64,000 bases of DNA from NCBI RefSeq assembly GCF_003018255.1, contig NZ_CP027440.1; one strand, given 5' to 3'. Shown in pieces: positions 3,240 through 62,432 of this stretch. The notes beneath the pieces are model-generated. The model was not told where the DNA came from. It did no database searches and saw nothing but the letters and a program-made list of their open reading frames with translations. This DNA comes from Escherichia coli. Its GTDB lineage: Bacteria > Pseudomonadota > Gammaproteobacteria > Enterobacterales > Enterobacteriaceae. The position numbers and the translations under genes are program-made. The stretch's first letter is position 1; each line of letters opens with the position of its first letter.

Positions 3240-4098
3240 AATTATGATTACGCATTACCCCTTCCTGAACGGTCGAGGCAACCAGCACGCCATCCTGGGT
3301 ATAAAACTCACCGCGCACAAAGCCGCGAGCGCTGGACGCCGAGGTGCTCTCCACGCTATACAGCAGCCATTCATTCAAATTAAACGGGCGATGGAACCAC
3401 ATGGAATGGTCAATGGTGGCAATCTGAATCCCCGGTTCGAGAAAACCGATGCCGTGCGGCTGTAAAGCTACCGGCAGGAAATTAAGATCAGAAGCGTAAC
3501 CGAGCAGATACTGATGAACGCGCAGATCATCCGGCACGTTACCATTTGCGCGGATCCACACCTGACGATGCGGTTCTGCGACGTGCCCTTTCAGTGGGTT
3601 ATGAAACTCCACCGGACGGACTTCAAGCGGACGATCGCAGATGAATTTATCTTTCAGCACTGGCGGCAGCAGGTGCGCCAGCGATTGGGCGATTTGCGTT
3701 TCCGAAGGCAGGCCATCAGGCGCTGGCGCGGACGGCATTGTTTTTTGATGTTCGAAACCCGCTTCTGGTGCCTGGAAAGAGGCAGTCATATAAAAAATCG
3801 GTTTGCCGTTTTGAATAGCAGCAACCCGGCGGGCGCTGAAGCTGTTACCGTCACGCAGCGTTTCGACATCATAAATAATCGGCTTCTTACTATCGCCTGG
3901 GCGAAGAAAGTAGCTGTGAAACGAATGTACCAGCCGCTCTTCAGGGACGGTCTCTTTTGCAGCATACAAGGCCTGACCCACGACCTGGCCGCCAAACACC
4001 TGGCGTAAACCTAAATCTTCACTCTGGCCGCGAAAGAGTCCTTCCTCAATTTTTTCCAGATTTAACAATGTCAGTAAATTTTTTAGCGCCTGACTCAT
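3238..4098 (-). CDS. tesB: Acyl-CoA thioesterase II
   Basis: 286 aa from ATG at 4098 ([20 protein letters not shown]); longer track ORF has a spurious 28-aa extension. Confidence 0.94.
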
Positions 4099-4315
4099 AT
4101 AACTCTCCAGTAACAAAGCTGCCGCAGCAAGCCAAAGTGAGTTGAGTATAACGCAAATTTGCCACTGGTCCGATGGGTGCAATGGTCTGAATTACGGGCT
4201 AATTACAGGCAGAAATGCGTGATGTGTGCCACACTTGTTGACGTTACTATTTTGTTAACCACTCTTCCGGCGAGGAAAGTTAGCCCGCTGGTGCATTGAT
4301 AATAAGGAGAAGTGA

Positions 4316-4885
4316 ATGAAACTCGTGCACATGGCCAGTGGTTTAGCGGTTGCGATTGCGTTGGCGGCTTGCGCAGATAAAAGCGCGGATATTCAGACGC
4401 CAGCACCGGCTGCAAATACGTCTATTTCAGCAACACAACCTGCTATCCAGCAACCGAATGTCTCCGGTACCGTCTGGATCCGTCAGAAAGTCGCACTGCC
4501 GCCTGATGCTGTGCTGACCGTGACACTTTCTGACGCGTCGTTAGCCGATGCGCCGTCAAAAGTGCTGGCGCAGAAAGCGGTGCGTACCGAAGGTAAACAG
4601 TCACCATTCAGCTTTGTTCTGCCATTTAACCCGGCAGATGTTCAGCCGAACGCGCGTATTCTATTGAGTGCGGCGATTACCGTGAATGACAAACTGGTAT
4701 TTATTACCGATACCGTTCAGCCGGTGATCAATCAGGGCGGAACTAAAGCCGACCTGACATTGGTGCCGGTGCAGCAAACCGCCGTGCCGGTTCAGGCCAG
4801 CGGTGGCGCAACGGCTACCGTACCTTCGACTTCACCAACTCAGGTGAATCCGTCTTCGGCAGTTCCAGCTCCTACGCAATATTAA
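4316..4885 (+). CDS. ybaY: Lipoprotein YbaY
   Basis: 189-aa ORF with lipobox LAAC after signal peptide; recognised ybaY. Confidence 0.9.
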   Translation: MKLVHMASGLAVAIALAACADKSADIQTPAPAANTSISATQPAIQQPNVSGTVWIRQKVALPPDAVLTVTLSDASLADAPSKVLAQKAVRTEGKQSPFSFVLPFNPADVQPNARILLSAAITVNDKLVFITDTVQPVINQGGTKADLTLVPVQQTAVPVQASGGATATVPSTSPTQVNPSSAVPAPTQY

Positions 4886-55477: not shown

Positions 55478-56933
55478 ATGAGCGGAAAACCAGCGGCGCG
55501 TCAGGGAGATATGACTCAGTATGGCGGTCCCATTGTCCAGGGTTCGGCAGGTGTAAGAATTGGCGCGCCCACCGGCGTGGCGTGCTCGGTGTGTCCGGGC
55601 GGGATGACCTCGGGCAACCCGGTAAATCCGCTGCTGGGGGCGAAGGTGCTGCCCGGCGAGACGGACCTTGCGCTGCCCGGCCCGCTGCCGTTCATTCTCT
55701 CCCGCACCTACAGCAGCTACCGGACGAAGACGCCTGCGCCGGTGGGGATTTTTGGCCCCGGCTGGAAAGCGCCTTCTGATATCCGCTTACAGATACGCGA
55801 TGATGTACTGGTACTCAACGACAACGGCGGACGGAGCATTCACTTTGAGCCGCTGCTGCCGGGTGAGGCGGTGTACAGCCGCAGCGAGTCCCTGTGGCTG
55901 GTGCGTGGCGGTAAGGCAACGCAGCCGGACGGCCACACGCTGGCACGGCTGTGGGCGTCGCTGCCGCCGGATATCCGGTTAAGCCCGCATCTTTACCTGG
56001 CGACCAGCAGCGCACAGGGGCCGTGGTGGATACTGGGGTGGTCTGAGCGGGTGCCGGGTGCTGAGGACGTACTGCCAGCGCCGCTGCCGCCGTACCGGAT
56101 GCTTACCGGGCTGGCGGACCGCTTCGGGCAGACGCTGACGTACCGGCGTGAGGCCGCCGGTGACCTGGCCGGGGAAATCACCGGCGTGACGGACGGTGCC
56201 GGGCGGGAGTTCCGTCTGGTGCTGACCACGCAGGCGCAGCGGGCGGAAGAGGCCCGTAAACAGCACACCGCTTCCTTATTTTCCCCTGACACCCCCCGCC
56301 CTCTTTCAGACTCTGCGTTCCCCGACACACTGCCCGGTACGGAATACGGCCCCGACAGGGGCATCCGTCTTTCGGCGGTGTGGCTGATGCACGACCCGGC
56401 ATACCCGGAAAGCCTGCCCGGTGCGCCACTGGCGCGGTACACGTATACGGAAGCCGGTGAACTGCTGGCGGTATATGACCGCAGCAATACGCAGGTGCGC
56501 GCTTTCACGTATGACGCGCAGCACCCGGGCCGGATGGTGGGGCACCGTTATGCGGGAAGGCCGGAGATGCGCTACCGCTACGACGATGCGGGGCGGGTGG
56601 TGGAGCAGCTGAACCCGACAGGCCTGAGTTACCGCTACCAGTATGAGCAGGACCGCATCACCATCACGGACAGCCTGAACCGGCGAGAGGTGCTGCATAC
56701 AGAAGGCGGGGCCGGGCTGAAGCGGGTGGTGAAAAAAGAACTGGCGGACGGCAGCGTCACGCACAGCGGGTATGACGCGGCAGGAAGGCTCACGGCACAG
56801 ACGGACGCGGCGGGACGGCGGACAGAGTACGGCCTGAATGTGGTGTCCGGCGATATCACGGATATCACCACGCCGGACGGGCGGGAGACGAAATTTTACT
56901 ATAACGACGGGAACCAGTTAACGGCGGTGGTGT
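55478..56933 (+). pseudogene. rhsD: Rhs polymorphic toxin gene, 5' fragment (PAAR-like N-terminus + start of YD-repeat core), cut by IS
   Basis: MSGKPAARQGDMTQYGGPIVQGSAGVRIGAPTGVACSVCPGG...; YD repeats; frame runs 12 codons into the IS and stops at 56969-56971; locus between ybbP and selU = K-12 rhsD position. Confidence 0.9.
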
Positions 56934-56967
56934 CCTTGACCCACGATATTCAGACAGTCGTTGTATC

Positions 56968-57849
56968 TTAAGTTGACGTTACCCGCTGACGTCGATATTC
57001 CCTTGGTGAGAGATAACCTAACGCACTATGCGGATGGGTTTCATTGTAATGCTCGATCGCCACTGCAAGGTTATGCAATGCCGTTCTTACATTCGGTTTC
57101 GGCATGAACGCGATGTAGTCTTCTTTCATCGTTTTCACGAACCTTTCTGCCATTCCATTGCTCTGAGGGCTACTGACTGCCGTTGTGCAGGGCTCCAGAT
57201 TCAACTCTCTGGCGAACTGCCGTGTTTCATGAGCTGTATAAGCCGAACCGTTATCAGTCAGCCACTGGATTGGCCGTTCCGCTCCTTTATCGCCAAAGCG
57301 TTTTTCTATTGCTCCTAACATGACATCCTGCACCGTTGCTTTGTCATAACCTCCCGTGCTTGCGGCCCAGTCTATGGCTTCACGATCGCAACAGTCCAGT
57401 GCGAACGTGACACGCAGTTTTGCGCCATCATCACAACCGAACTCAAAGCCATCGGAACACCAGCGCTGGTCGCTTTCCTTCACCGATATTCGGCCTTTAT
57501 GTTCCCGCTGCGGCCGTGAAGGTTTGTCATGTAACAACAACAGGTTATTTTCGCTCATTATCCGATAAACGCGCTTTGCATTCACGAACGGCACTCCTTT
57601 GTTACGGGACTGTCGTCTGAGAATGGCCCAGACACGACGATAGCCATATGTCGGCATATCGCTGATGATATCAAGGATACGTGCTAACACTTCCGCATCC
57701 GCAGCCTCATCACATCTGCGACGACGTTTATTCGGCTTATTACCAGATGTTTTCATCCGTTGTGCCAGTTGCGCACGCGACACGCCCAGAATACGGCTTA
57801 CCAGGGTTATTCCTTGTCCGTTGGCAACAAGGGCGCATGCGCTATCCAT
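56968..57849 (-). CDS. IS2-group transposase OrfB (DDE integrase core)
   Basis: 293-aa ORF; [25 protein letters not shown] (D,D,E); strong by-eye similarity to IS2 InsD. Confidence 0.9.
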
Positions 57850-58199
57850 TTTCGCGACTGACCATACTCCACCGCTTCTTTGAGGATCTCAACTTCCATG
57901 GTTTTCTTACCCAGCAAGCGCTGTAACTCTTTTATTTGTTTTATAGCGGCAGCCAGTTCTGAGGCAGGAACGACATCCTCTCCGGCAGCAACAGCAGTGA
58001 GACTTCCTTCCAGATATTGTTTTTTCCACTTAAACAACAGGCTGGGCTGAATACCATGCAAACGCGCCACATGGGACACCGTCATACCGGGTTCCATTGT
58101 CTGCTGAATAATGGCGATTTTTTCCTGAGGAGTTTTACGTTTACGAAGCTCCTGCCCCAGCAAAATTCCAGTCATCTCAAAATTAGCACTAGTAGACAT
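57807..58199 (-). CDS. IS2-group transposase OrfA (HTH)
   Basis: [38 protein letters not shown]...[19 protein letters not shown] resembles IS2 InsC; start uncertain (ATG 58199, 58175 or 58232); overlaps orfB by 43 nt in the -1 frame. Confidence 0.85.
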
Positions 58200-58263
58200 A
58201 TATCCAAGCCTATCTCTTATTTTAAGATACATCCACTGTCTGGCGTTTCAAGGGGCCGGTTCA

Positions 58264-61038
58264 CAGTTAACGGCGGTGGTGTACCCGGACGGGCTGGAGA
58301 GCAGCCGGGCATATGATGAGCTGGACAGACTGGTATCGGAGACATCGCGCAGCGGGGAGACAGTACGCTACCGCTACGATGACGTGCACAGTGAGTTACC
58401 GGCGACGACAACGGATGCGACGGGCAGCACCCGGCAGATGACCTGGAGCCGCTACGGGCAGTTGCTGGCCTTCACCGACTGCTCGGGCTACCAGACCCGC
58501 TATGAATACGACCACTTTGGTCAGATGACGGCGGTCCATCGTGAGGAAGGCATCAGCACGTACAATACCTATAACCCGCGCGGCCAGCTGGTCAGCCGGA
58601 AAGACGCACAGGGCCGTGAAACGCGGTATGAATACAACGCCGCAGGCGACCTGACTGCCGTTATCACCCCGGACGGCAACCGGAGCGAGACACAGTACGA
58701 TGCGTGGGGAAAGGCGGTCAGCACCACGCAGGGCGGGCTGACGCGCAGTATGGAGTACGATGCTGCCGGACGTGTCATCAGCCTGACCAACGAGAACGGC
58801 AGTCACAGCGACTTCAGCTACGATACGCTTGACCGGCTGGTACAGCAGCGCGGCTTTGACGGGCGGACGCAACGTTATCATTATGACCTGACCGGAAAAC
58901 TCACGCAGAGTGAAGATGAGGGGCTTGTCATCCTCTGGTACTACGATGAATCGGACCGTATCACTCACCGCACGGTGAACGGCGAACCGGCAGAGCAGTG
59001 GCAGTATGATGGCCACGGCTGGCTGAGAGAAATCAGCCACCTGAGCGAAGGCCACCGTGTTGCCGTCCACTATGGCTACGACGATAAGGGCCGTCTGACC
59101 GGGGAGCGCCAGACGGTGGAGAACCCGGAGACGGGGGAACTGCTGTGGCAGCATGAGACGAAACAGGCATACAACGAACAGGGGCTGGCAAACCGCGTCA
59201 CGCCGGACAGCCTGCCGCCGGTGGAGTGGCTGGCCTATGGCAGCGGTTATCTGGCGGGCATGAAGCTGGGCGGGACGCCGCTGCTGGAGTACACGCGCGA
59301 CCGCCTGCACCGGGAGACGGTGCGCAGCTTCGGCAGCATGGCAGGCAATACAGCCGCATATGAACTGACCAGCACTTACACCCCCGCAGGCCAGTTACAG
59401 AGCCGGCACCTGAACAGCCTGGTGTTTGATTGTGACTATAACTGGAATGACAACGGCGACCTGATGCGCATCAGCGGCCCGCGACAGACGCGGGAATACG
59501 GCTACAGCGCCACGGGCAGGCTGGAGAGCGTGCGCACCCTCGCACCGGACCTGGACATCCGCATCCCGTATGCCACCGACCCGGCGGGCAACCGGCTGCC
59601 GGACCCGGAGCTGCACCCGGACAGTACACTCACAGTGTGGCCGGATAACCGAATCACCGAAGACGCGCACTACCTGTACCGTTACGATGAATACGGCAGG
59701 CTGGCGGAGAAGACGGACCGCATCCCGGCGGGTGTGATACGGACGGACGACGAGCGGACCCACCACTACCACTACGACAGCCAGCACCGCCTGGTGTTCT
59801 ATACGCGGATACAGCATGGCGAGCCACTGGTCGAGAGCCGCTACCTTTACGACCCGCTGGGCCGCCGGACGGGTAAACGGGTGTGGCGTCGCGGGCGTGA
59901 CCTGACAGGATGGATGTCGCTGTCGCGTAAACCGGAGGAGACGTGGTACGGGTGGGACGGCGACAGGCTGACGACGGTGCAGACTGACAGCACGCGTATC
60001 CAGACGGTGTACCAGCCGGGAAGCTTCACACCGCTCATCCGCATCGAAACAGACGTGACCGAACTGGAGAAAGCGCAGCGGCGGAGCCTGGCGGAGAAGC
60101 TCCAGCAGGAAGGGAGCGAGGACGGACACGGCGTGGTGTTCCCGGCTGAACTGGTGCGGCTGCTGGACAGGCTGGAGGAAGAAATCCGGACAGACCGCGT
60201 GAGCAGTGAAAGCCGGGCGTGGCTTGCGCAGTGCGGGCTGACGGTGGAGCAACTGGAAAAACAGGTGGAGCCGGAATATACACCGGCGCGAAAAGTTCAT
60301 CTTTACCACTGCGACCACCGGGGCCTGCCGCTGGCGCTTATCAGCGAAGACGGCAATACGGTGTGGAGCGCGGAGTATGATGAATGGGGAAACCTGCTTA
60401 ATGAGGAGAACCCGCATCATGTGTATCAGTCATACCGTCTGCCGGGGCAGCAGCATGATGAGGAGTCGGGGCTGTACTACAACCGGAACCGGTACTACAA
60501 TCCGTTGCTGGGACGATATATTACTCAGGACCCGATTGGGCTGGCGGGGGGATGGAGTCTGTATGCGTATCCGCTGAATCCGGTGAATGGTATTGATCCA
60601 TTAGGATTAAGTCCTGCAGATGTAGCGTTAATGCGAAAAAAAGAACAATTAAACCATCAAAGAGCATGGGATATATTATCTGATACTTATGATGATATGA
60701 AGAGATTAAATTTAGGTGGGACTGATCAATTTTTCCATTGTATGGCATTTTGTCGAGTGTCTAAATTAAATGACGCTGGTGTTAGCCGATCAGCGAAAGG
60801 GCTGGGTTATGAAAAAGAGATTAGAGATTACGGGTTAAATATGTTCGGTATGTACGGCAGAAAAGTAAAGTTATCCCATTCTGAGATGATTGAAGATAAT
60901 AAAAAAGACTTGGCTGTAAATGAACATGGGTTGACATGTCCATTAACACAAGATTGCTCAAATAGATGTATTGATTATATTAATCCAGAGCATAAAAAAA
61001 CGATAAAGGCTTTACAAGATGCTGGCTATCTCAAGTAA
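58264..61038 (+). pseudogene. rhsD: Rhs polymorphic toxin gene, 3' fragment (YD-repeat core + C-terminal toxin tip)
   Basis: Frame [23 protein letters not shown]... continues the 5' fragment exactly; YD repeats throughout; core ends [27 protein letters not shown] (to 60609). Confidence 0.9.
60610..61035 (+). other. Rhs C-terminal variable toxin domain (142 aa), AT-rich
   Basis: Begins right after the PxxxxDPxGL core-terminating motif; composition switches abruptly from GC-rich core to AT-rich tip; five Cys; by-eye serum-amyloid-A-like motifs (see findings). Confidence 0.7.
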
Positions 61039-61510
61039 CATCTCAAAGATGGTAATATTTATTTTTGCTATTATAATCGTTGTTTTTTTATGCGTGACTA
61101 CTTATCTTTATTTACACAAAGATGAATCTCTTGTAAGTAAGCATTACATAAACTATATGGCAATACCAGAAAGTGATGGGGTTTTTACATGGCTCCCAGA
61201 TTTTTTTCCGCACGTAGCGGTGGATATATCAATATCCACAAATGTAGAAGATGATTATTTTTTTTCTTATTTTTCCCTAACAATCGATGATGGGGGGAGG
61301 TTTAAGAAAACATTGACTGTGAGGGCCAGGGAACAAGTGGCGAAAATCGTATCAGAGAATGATCCAGATACAAAAAAAGTGTGGTGTAAATATGGTAAAA
61401 TACCAGGGCAAGGGGATAGCGTAAACCTTTTTTTTGTTGGTGAAATTAATGTTACGCATTATTTTATAACAAATATTGGAGCTGGGTTACCTGATGCTTG
61501 TGCAGAGTAA
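61019..61510 (+). CDS. Candidate Rhs immunity protein with N-terminal TM anchor
   Basis: 163-aa AT-rich ORF overlapping the toxin 3' end by 20 nt; hydrophobic helix [22 protein letters not shown]; position typical of rhsI genes. Confidence 0.65.
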
Positions 61511-61876
61511 TTGCTTGAATTAAGAGTCTATCCCATATCGAAGTCGTCAACTTCGTAGTGAGGAAAAGTATAATCCCTGACTGAGAAAAGACATGTCGGC
61601 TATTGTGTAAAGCCATATAGCTCAGACGATGAATATCTACTCGTATTCAGTTGTTTATTGAGGGTGAGTTCCGACCCTGAAACAACAAATAAAATGAACA
61701 GCCAGAGAGTTTACATAGAATTGCACTGGTCTTTTACGATATCTGACATTGTGTAATACATATTCAGCCATGCATTAATTAAAATGTTACGTGTTTAATG
61801 TGAGTCCCTATCTGAAAATAAATAATCCTTCCGGATTAAAATAAATTCTCGCCGGGAAAGAAAGAGGAAATAAACC

Positions 61877-61972
61877 ATTAGCGGAAAACCAGCGGCACGC
61901 CAGGGTGACATGCCCCAGTACGGCGGCCCGATAGTCCAGGGTTCAGCGGGGGTACTGATAGTCGCGCCGACT
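61877..61972 (+). pseudogene. Orphan Rhs N-terminal (PAAR-like) fragment, start codon ATG->ATT
   Basis: ATTAGCGGAAAACCAGCGGCACGCCAGGGTGACATGCCCCAGTACGGCGGCCCGATAGTCCAGGGTTCAGCG... aligns to 55478-55573 of the main rhs (ISGKPAARQGDMPQYGGPIVQGSAG); similarity ends about 61972. Confidence 0.8.
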
Positions 61973-62024: not shown

Positions 62025-62432
62025 TCAGTATCGTCTTTTGAGATTCTCAAGGTTATGGAGTAACCAGACAGAACGGACACCACTGTCGGAGATAAAAACC
62101 CCCTGTTTACGCAGCTCGTTGCTGGCCCGGTGCTGACCATGTGTCGGGAAAGCGACGGCGTAATCAACAACAGCCTGTTCAATTGCCTCATCGGTACGGT
62201 TCTTAAGGTTAGGAGCGCGGCGACTACGATTAATCTGCGCATCCACACCGCCTTCAGCGGCCAGTTCGCGGTAACGATAAAACGTATCACGCGAAACGCC
62301 CATGATTTTACAGGCTTTTGATACGTTGCTGAGTTCTTCAGCCAGATTGAGCAAACCGGCTTTGTGTTTGATGACGGGATTGGCAGTATGAAGCATGAGA
62401 GTTACCTCTTGTTTTGGATAAGGATTCGACAC
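62025..62432 (-). mobile_element. Truncated transposase N-terminal fragment (HTH only; ylbG-like, probably IS481-type)
   Basis: 135-aa ORF: ...LSNVSKACKIMGVSRDTFYRYRELAAEGGVDA...; no DDE core follows; no terminal IRs identified. Confidence 0.6.

Follow-up and report, generated by a model that had tools for sequence, protein, structure and literature searches.

One Rhs gene of Escherichia coli raises a question: what does a toxin tip that resembles serum amyloid A (SAA) do? The tip is encoded at nucleotides 60610–61038, on the plus strand, of a 64,000-nucleotide stretch of contig NZ_CP027440.1 (assembly GCF_003018255.1); the whole stretch is called the window here. An initial annotation of this DNA, made without database searches, had aligned the tip to SAA by eye and had proposed that it acts on the cell envelope rather than as a nuclease. 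That core interpretation proves to be largely right. Its sequence profile and its predicted fold both mark the tip as a true homologue of SAA and not a chance look-alike, and it is a new member of the published prok-SAA family, part of the SAA-Wnt clade in the Lipocone superfamily.

Sequence and predicted fold of the tip

The Rhs portion of the protein ends with a DPLGL motif (codons 60595–60609). The codons of the tip follow directly (60610–61035; 142 residues), and the stop codon occupies 61036–61038. The GC content drops from 0.617 in the Rhs core (58276–60609) to 0.347 in the tip and is similar, at 0.350, in the downstream open reading frame (ORF); this bears out the annotated DPLGL boundary and the AT-rich tip of 142 residues beginning at 60610. 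All of the hallmarks of an Rhs polymorphic toxin are present: RHS/YD repeats, a core domain, the DPxGL boundary, the fall in GC content and a small downstream immunity ORF.

Is the likeness to SAA found in profile searches? When the tip was compared with Pfam, its top match, and the only meaningful one, was PF00277 (SAA; E 1.6e-4, 22.5 bits), in which tip residues 17–107 were aligned with positions 9–84 of the 102-position profile (76 positions). This score lies below the gathering score of PF00277 (30.8 bits), and the tip thus falls short of membership at the curated threshold; the match is backed by those of the tip’s relatives. A word-indexed protein search reached close relatives only; for the distant ones, 1.84 billion representative proteins had to be searched exhaustively with HMMER. 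This second search returned 106 relatives. Among the 86 that were scanned, 59 matched PF00277 at E ≤ 1e-3 (best E 2e-25), and 12 carried RHS repeats.

Comparisons with proteins of known structure gave the same family. As a single sequence, the tip matched only SAA chains among PDB sequences, with weak E-values. For a profile made from an alignment of 27 close relatives of the tip, SAA was the sole PDB family at E < 0.1; the best match had an E-value of 8.8e-5 (7zh7), and human SAA1 and mouse SAA3 were found at E-values of about 0.002. In hhalign, this profile aligned with human SAA1 with a probability of 95.8% (E 7.8e-9). The human SAA1 query used there agrees with the stretches of SAA1 in the PDB alignments. 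Scans of the tip with NCBIfam and PADLOC yielded nothing meaningful.

The predicted structure was likewise compared. An AlphaFold model based on the 27-sequence alignment had a pLDDT of 95.5 and a pTM of 0.88, superseding an earlier, mediocre run with six sequences (pLDDT 72). Its helices comprise residues 2–33, 39–51, 56–78, 90–108, 116–123 and 129–137. Foldseek placed SAA1 or SAA3 structures in the top seven positions when this model was compared with the PDB (probability 1.00; target TM-score 0.68–0.74), and the matches that followed had probabilities of 0.13 or less. There was no match in a viral library (BFVD). Two of the checks that the initial annotation had suggested, the PF00277 profile and the structural comparison, returned SAA first.

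Residue by residue, two of the three blocks aligned by eye were reproduced by independent HMMER and hhalign alignments; these are the second block (ten tip residues with NYIGSDKYFH of human SAA1) and the third (DLAVNEHG with DQAANEWG). The first block, AWDILSD with MWRAYSD, is four residues out of register. It is TYDDM of the tip that pairs with AYSDM of SAA, gapless with the second block, and W20-x3-SD of the tip is therefore not paired with W18-x3-SD of SAA1. A conserved spacing of 28 residues between FH and I had also been proposed; the number is correct, but the spacing is not conserved without gaps, as hhalign introduces a one-residue indel that pairs E70 with E63 of SAA1.

The Lipocone superfamily was defined by Burroughs, Nicastro and Aravind (eLife 2025; PMC12419801). 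In its SAA-Wnt clade, animal SAA and Wnt descend from two families of bacteria, prok-SAA and Min-Wnt, and prok-SAA domains are the toxin tips of RHS/type VI secretion system (T6SS) and MuF polymorphic toxins with transmembrane-anchored immunity proteins (PMC12419801). The hallmarks of prok-SAA are a His in helix 2 (H2), a Glu in H3, an Asp in H4, an sNxxGR motif, a short fifth helix that packs between H2 and H4, and low hydrophobicity (PMC12419801). The tip has all of these but the final Arg, which is replaced by L108 and is variable among the relatives, and its predicted fold is a four-helix cone with a short fifth helix. A sequence in the Prok-SAA data file of that study, HAU8267270.1, is 59% identical to the tip. 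The arrangement expected of a prok-SAA toxin is also found, with a delivery module (RHS) upstream and an anchored YbbD-family ORF overlapping the stop codon of the tip.

The novelty of the find is limited by the computational description of prok-SAA toxin tips in 2025 (PMC12419801). Because the family, its role in toxins and its anchored immunity proteins were already published, the present find adds a member and a test bed rather than a new kind of toxin. What is new is that the ylbH/ybbD pseudogenes, together with a widespread Rhs tip of E. coli, are assigned by sequence to prok-SAA; neither the main text of PMC12419801 nor those of its supplements that were searched mention the ylbH/ybbD locus by name.

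Conservation was assessed in 76 full-length domain sequences of 25–93% identity. D39, H43, E70, N104 and G107 are kept in all 76, D100 in 75, and D73 and D96 in 73; position 69 is K or R throughout, and N104 is preceded by a small residue, A or V, in 74. The pocket of the tip consists of D39, H43, K69-E70, D73, D96, D100, N104 and G107, with plus-strand codons at 60736–60738 (H43), 60814–60819 (K69-E70), 60907–60909 (D100) and 60919–60921 (N104). The charges of the tip are balanced (22 K+R vs. 20 D+E), and it contains no hydrophobic segment: the maximum of its 19-residue Kyte-Doolittle hydropathy is 0.55, and no window exceeds 1.6. The tip is a soluble helical domain with the polar pocket of its family intact.

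Cysteines are the other conserved feature. The five noted in the initial annotation are indeed there (C44, C48, C110, C116 and C120); C44, C116 and C120 occur in 76 of 76 sequences, C48 in 75 and C110 in 63. The near-invariant signature of four cysteines (C44, C48, C116 and C120) is a further new observation, and the main text of PMC12419801 contains no discussion of conserved cysteines. All five are present in 62 sequences and C110 alone is missing in 13, which is too little variation to settle how they pair.

These properties bear on the first mechanism that had been put forward, in which the likeness to lipid-binding SAA meant membrane disruption. The tip would then be an apolipoprotein-type amphipathic bundle that permeabilizes the inner or outer membrane without enzymatic action. 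SAA is a helical bundle that associates with high-density lipoprotein and binds retinol (retinol-bound SAA3 structure 6py0), a lipid tail sits inside the cone in the Lipocone model (PMC12419801), and the immunity protein YbbD is membrane-anchored. The lack of a hydrophobic segment and the balanced charges of the tip argue against such a bundle, as does the fact that its invariant residues make up a polar pocket and a set of cysteines, not an amphipathic face. Moreover, the characterized relatives, described below, act by enzymatic cleavage (TelC and YfiM) or by protein binding (BteO), not by forming pores. We thus consider membrane disruption improbable, and a weaker proposal than either a pocket like that of a pyrophosphatase of lipid-linked oligosaccharides or a groove like that of BteO. 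A pore-forming or membrane-inserting toxin was also entertained and was rejected, there being no hydrophobic window in the tip.

YbbD and the probable site of action

The candidate immunity gene, of the ybbD family, lies at 61019–61510 on the plus strand and overlaps the ORF of the tip by 20 nt. It encodes 163 residues, matches the NCBIfam equivalog PRK14710 (E 1.5e-112) and is named ‘YbbD family protein’ in RefSeq; relatives of YbbD have PF26610 (YbbD_head) as their precomputed Pfam family. The protein has one strongly hydrophobic segment near its N-terminus (19-residue Kyte-Doolittle maximum 3.03, centered on residue 17), in keeping with the membrane-anchored candidate of the initial annotation. 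It is predicted to comprise an N-terminal membrane anchor and a domain of ~130 residues that faces the periplasm. Of its cysteines (25, 123 and 161), only C123 and C161 are outside the anchor.

The linkage between toxin and immunity gene is kept in a relative of the tip with 55% identity, which also precedes a YbbD-like anchored ORF. As a side observation, the YbbD homologue in question (394–844 of its locus) is divergent and split by a frameshift, and it has an N-terminus that resembles a signal peptide. It has four cysteines, and two at its N-terminus have no counterpart in E. coli YbbD.

In which compartment would the tip act? Many characterized Rhs tips act in the cytoplasm, and the topology of YbbD is a predicted one. 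It could be, therefore, that the tip is a cytoplasmic nuclease, NADase, ADP-ribosyltransferase or the like, and that its likeness to SAA says nothing about its function. However, Pfam, NCBIfam, PADLOC and the PDB gave no match to any nuclease, NADase or ADP-ribosyltransferase family, and SAA only was found. Four of the cysteines are close to invariant in the family, the immunity protein is anchored (with the signal-peptide-like N-terminus in one relative), and neither of two relatives, BteO and TelC, is toxic from within the cytoplasm. TelC, as summarized in PMC12419801, is an interbacterial toxin of a more distant Lipocone clade; it is a lipid II phosphatase that cleaves its substrate and works only when it is outside the cytoplasm. 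A cytoplasmic activity of the tip is, in our estimation, highly improbable, and the nuclease and NADase candidates were rejected on account of the sole matched family, the anchored immunity protein and the conserved cysteines.

An envelope or periplasmic site of action, as opposed to nuclease activity, had been proposed at the outset. It is the site to which the cysteines, the anchored YbbD and the non-cytoplasmic toxicity of BteO and TelC best point. Periplasmic or envelope action as such is considerably likelier than any one chemistry.

Cleavage or binding as possible roles of the conserved pocket

What might the conserved pocket do in that compartment? A candidate activity comes from E. coli YfiM, which, when purified, is a Ca2+-dependent lipid-linked-oligosaccharide pyrophosphatase. 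Each of the changes K28A, H31A, E72A and D91A abolishes its activity, its overexpression leads to osmotic lysis, and residues H87, E128, D143 and D147 of VanZ align with its catalytic residues (preprint 10.64898/2026.09.16.752124). When the motifs are placed in register, GQD27-K28-AQH31 of YfiM corresponds to GTD39-Q40-FFH43 of the tip, K71-E72-LWD75 to K69-E70-IRD73, and D87-LAW-D91-VAG94 to D100-LAV-N104-EHG107. YfiM and the tip hence share both the order and the local spacing of three motifs: G-x-D-x3-H, K-E-x2-D and D-x3-[D/N]-x2-G. We infer this mapping from the motifs; a direct hhalign comparison of the tip with YfiM gave a score that was not significant. In published work, PSI-BLAST started from a bacterial SAA-like protein reaches YfiM/DUF2279 (PMC12419801).

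By analogy with these enzymes, the reading that we favor, and to which we would give about an even chance, is that the tip acts as a toxin in the periplasm and there cleaves the lipid-linked precursors of the cell wall, with YbbD as its immunity protein. In strains with an intact gene, the Rhs shell would free the tip after DPLGL, and a T6SS would deliver it to the periplasm of a neighboring cell, where disulfides would form between its cysteines. The pocket, probably with Ca2+, would then cleave the pyrophosphate link of undecaprenyl-linked envelope precursors; the substrates would be lipid II and possibly intermediates of O-antigen or enterobacterial common antigen. Starved of precursors, cell-wall synthesis would fail and the cell would lyse, as happens with TelC and with overexpressed YfiM. 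In sibling cells, YbbD, anchored in the inner membrane, would bind and block the tip by means of its periplasmic domain.

A number of points weigh against this reading. The position of D91, essential in YfiM, is held by Asn (N104) in the tip and in 76 of 76 relatives, and that of the essential K28 is held by Q40 in the tip; because of these two substitutions, the chemistry of the tip may differ or may have been lost. The closest relative that has been studied by experiment, BteO, is reported to be a non-enzymatic binder of OmpA. Our literature searches found no biochemical or genetic test of any prok-SAA toxin, and those directed at ylbH/ybbD and at periplasmic tips of PAAR-Rhs proteins found no experiment on this tip, in agreement with the initial annotation. 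On the side of delivery, the link of this Rhs protein to a T6SS is indirect. The PAAR motif in its N-terminal part scores below threshold (E 0.006; 17.2 bits vs. a cut-off of 27), and no T6SS gene adjoins rhs in the window, the gene directly upstream being ybbP and not vgrG. (The Rhs protein does have a DUF6531 header, and in the eLife context data VgrG is often upstream of DUF6531 loci, in 46 of 133; PMC12419801.) Lastly, rhs is disrupted by an insertion sequence (IS) in this genome, such that no single uninterrupted gene runs from the delivery domain to the tip.

The case of BteO merits closer scrutiny. The BteO–BtiO pair is from Bacteroides fragilis (PNAS 2025, PMC12541434; PDB 9UU0). BteO is toxic only when it is sent to the periplasm, E. 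coli included, and its immunity protein is periplasmic; its effects are elongation, blebbing, lysis and altered muropeptide profiles (PMC12541434). It binds OmpA-C-like domains, overexpression of OmpA proteins rescues the cells, and a triple ompA deletion mimics the phenotype, while BtiO is a structural mimic of OmpA (PMC12541434). Mutation of R143, H144, H167, E168, D187 or D191 leads to the loss of both toxicity and OmpA binding (PMC12541434). BteO was called non-enzymatic in that it neither digested sacculi or muropeptides nor had amidase activity (PMC12541434). The word ‘lipid’ does not occur in the BteO paper, and lipid-linked substrates were therefore apparently not tried there.

Although its paper presents it as a ‘unique non-enzymatic’ effector that had no known homologues, BteO belongs to the DUF6973/Min-Wnt Lipocones: it matches DUF6973 (E 3.3e-14), and its sequence, DAL68673.1, is in the Min-Wnt file of the eLife study (PMC12419801). 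Neither SAA nor Lipocones are mentioned in the BteO paper (PMC12541434). The six residues required for its toxicity are predicted Lipocone pocket residues and occur in the motifs FRH, AHE and D-x3-D-x3-N-x2-G, to which F42-H43, K69-E70 and D96-x3-D100-x3-N104-x2-G107 of the tip are equivalent in motif register. When the tip family was aligned to a sample of Min-Wnt sequences with hhalign, the motifs were in register, but the match was weak (E 0.0035, probability 9%); the tip itself had no match to DUF6973 at E-values of up to 10. As far as sequence comparison goes, the tip is related to Min-Wnt/DUF6973 without being a member.

The main alternative follows the BteO report: the tip may be a binder, with a non-catalytic groove that, in the target periplasm, clamps the OmpA-C-like, peptidoglycan-binding domains of envelope proteins (OmpA, Pal, MotB-type) and thereby uncouples the outer membrane from the wall, and YbbD may fill this groove. 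The binding of OmpA-C-like domains by BteO, the rescue by OmpA and the mimicry by the triple deletion would all find their counterpart in such a mechanism, and the BteO mutations at R143, H144, H167, E168, D187 and D191 fall, by register, on F42, H43, K69, E70, D96 and D100 of the tip. Human SAA, too, is reported to bind E. coli OmpA, according to a citation in PMC12419801, and the SAA-Wnt clade has Asn at the position of the essential Asp of YfiM. Yet BteO is in the sister family (DUF6973/Min-Wnt) rather than in prok-SAA, and YbbD has no OmpA-like sequence match, whereas BtiO mimics OmpA structurally. The ‘non-enzymatic’ label derives solely from the lack of sacculus hydrolysis and amidase activity, whereas muropeptide profiles did change. 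Furthermore, a D/H/E/D/N constellation that is kept almost without exception among sequences of only 25–30% identity is a trait more often seen in catalytic or metal sites. We regard a binding mechanism as possible but, on balance, doubtful.

An evolutionary version of this alternative, which strikes us as rather unlikely, is that the tip works like BteO in that an ancestral catalytic pocket, with Asn in place of the old Asp throughout the SAA-Wnt clade, was turned into a clamp for OmpA-type peptidoglycan-binding domains. If this were true, the binding of human SAA to OmpA would be a relic of an ancient toxin–target relationship common to E. coli Rhs tips, BteO and animal SAA. The converse may equally hold: the ‘binding’ residues of BteO may be the catalytic set, and BteO itself may be a pyrophosphatase of lipid-linked precursors. 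Neither connection is stated in PMC12419801 or PMC12541434.

That the toxicity residues of BteO and the catalytic residues of YfiM appear, from the motif alignments, to fall on the conserved positions of the tip is likewise new here, and the coincidence sets up a clear question of enzyme or binder. The tip and YbbD would be a convenient system in which to ask whether SAA-type Lipocones are enzymes, with lipid-linked precursors of the wall as substrates (the 2025 prediction), or protein binders (the report on BteO); with an SAA homologue in the best-studied bacterium, the genetics are easy. The outcome would also matter for understanding how animal SAA affects bacteria.

The locus and its known counterparts

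In this segment of the E. coli chromosome, ybbP is followed by rhs, then by ybbD, a ylbI-like remnant, ylbG and selU, an arrangement that is colinear with the rhsD locus of K-12. The N-terminal part of rhs (55478–56933, plus strand) has the sub-threshold PAAR-like motif, a DUF6531 header and RHS repeats, and is severed by the IS; the ORF at 55478–56971 matches RHS_repeat (E 1.1e-25) and DUF6531 (E 7.1e-19). The C-terminal Rhs shell and core (58264–60609, plus strand) include PF03527, the RHS core, at 60295–60405. In the corresponding ORF of 920 residues, RHS_repeat is matched at E 9.9e-51 and PF03527 at E 1.2e-17 (residues 674–710). Downstream of ybbD there is a ylbI-like remnant of an Rhs N-terminus (SGKPAARQGDMPQYGGPIVQGSAGV...; 61874–61969, plus strand; 32 codons), recognized by the likeness of its translation to the Rhs N-terminus at 55478; the K-12 pseudogene ylbI is annotated at the equivalent place. 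A truncated, ylbG-like gene of the IS-type helix-turn-helix class (62025–62432, minus strand) comes after it.

The interrupting element is of the IS3 family and is 1330 bp long (56934–58263, minus strand). Its two genes, orfA (57807–58232) and orfB (56968–57849), are both on the minus strand, and their products match HTH_Tnp_1 and rve/rve_3/HTH_21. Colinearity with the intact 4203-nt gene of JNE112863 stops at 56933, and the 1330-bp segment is missing from JNE112863, DETEC-S792 and K-12. In JNE112863 and DETEC-S792, rhs is uninterrupted (4203 nt), the tip is fused to a full-length Rhs protein, and ybbD is intact. Because the IS splits rhs in the present genome, the toxin is probably not deliverable here, with its immunity gene intact.

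The ends of the insertion have their own peculiarities. The element is flanked by a 19-bp direct repeat of the target, CAGTTAACGGCGGTGGTGT, at 56915–56933 and 58264–58282. Target duplications of the IS3 family are usually 3–5 bp, far shorter than this one. The terminal inverted repeats (TGACCCACG...CAGACAGT / TGAAACGC...CAGACAGT) seem to lie a few bases inside the inserted segment, with the extra bases CCT on the left and AGGGGCCGGTTCAC on the right.

How common is the cassette in an intact form? The tip and ybbD are found in 2861 of 5426 complete E. coli genomes. When a query spanning the junction of core and tip was used, 962 genomes, O157:H7 and O55:H7 strains included, had a single place that matched at least 80% of it, a number that is an upper bound for the fused form; the best 40 of these junction matches are single pieces annotated as full Rhs proteins. 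The fused, potentially active form is therefore common.

K-12 harbors the same cassette at the same chromosomal place, between ybbP and selU. Its ylbH encodes this tip (93% identity, measured on a related cluster representative), and the immunity gene ybbD is shared as well. In that strain, ylbH is an orphan pseudogene that lacks a promoter and sits behind rhsD (with a DUF4329 tip) and ybbC, and ybbD carries a frameshift; the window, JNE112863 and DETEC-S792, by contrast, have the tip joined to Rhs and an intact ybbD. From the sequences, it looks as though the fused form arose when the rhsD core recombined with the orphan’s core fragment and the DUF4329 tip and ybbC were lost. Separately, Hafnia alvei has the same tip (86% identical; 3974–4818 of the locus) as a C-terminally truncated orphan. 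It stands behind another Rhs gene and the immunity gene of that Rhs, and an 86-residue YbbD_head fragment follows. Decay of the orphaned cassette is thus seen elsewhere in the Enterobacterales as well.

A second E. coli tip had been cited in the initial annotation, as that of K-12 RhsD, for a more distant member of the same family. The kinship is real, in that this tip belongs to the sister family Min-Wnt; the gene name is wrong, as RhsD of K-12 in fact ends in a DUF4329 domain (E 4.7e-38). The quoted motif, AADAMRHCYLMCR...DLKNNTVG, belongs to the RhsE-type tip that precedes ydcD, and occurs in the flank of DETEC-S792. The RhsE-type tip matches DUF6973 (E 2e-12), with 39 occurrences in the eLife file that we identified, by file order, as Min-Wnt.tsv (PMC12419801). 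YbbD has no detectable sequence similarity to YdcD, the RhsE-type immunity protein; the kinship of the two tips is therefore not mirrored by their immunity proteins. In DETEC-S792, a second full-length Rhs gene with an RhsE-type (DUF6973/Min-Wnt) tip and ydcD is immediately upstream (1–1252 of the locus). An ISAs1 transposase gene lies between the two Rhs genes, and toxins of two sister Lipocone families thus stand in tandem.

Among known systems, the published prok-SAA toxins are the same domain as the tip (H2 His, H3 Glu and H4 D-x3-N-x2-G), deployed in the same manner as C-terminal tips of RHS/T6SS proteins with a transmembrane-anchored immunity gene. The published immunity family Imm-SAA has an alpha-helix, four beta-strands and four conserved cysteines (PMC12419801), vs. 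the two cysteines that YbbD has outside its anchor; the string YbbD is absent from the searched supplements of that paper.

BteO resembles the tip in its periplasm-only toxicity and in having its toxicity residues on the motif positions of the tip’s invariant residues. It differs in that it belongs to the sister family, with RH, HE and D-x3-D-x3-N motifs and without the tip’s cysteines, and in that it is a stand-alone effector with its own N-terminal transmembrane helix, not an Rhs tip, with OmpA binding as its reported mechanism. YfiM, VanZ and Llp1 are grouped as the characterized Lipocone pyrophosphatases of lipid-linked oligosaccharides. YfiM and VanZ are integral-membrane proteins with housekeeping or resistance functions, whereas the tip is soluble.

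With animal SAA (PF00277; human SAA1, 4ip8/4ip9; mouse SAA3, 4q5g/6pxz), the tip has in common a homologous helical cone. Its residues D39, H43, K69-E70, D96, D100, N104 and G107 correspond to D33, H37, R62-E63, D75, D79, N83 and G86 of mature human SAA1. The connection between H3 and H4 is longer in the tip, with 30 residues from E70 to D100 vs. 16 in SAA1, and the helices at 116–123 and 129–137 are additional to the animal fold. The tip also has four near-invariant cysteines that animal SAA lacks. The two proteins differ, finally, in their setting: the tip is an Rhs-fused toxin module with an immunity partner, whereas animal SAA is a secreted acute-phase apolipoprotein.

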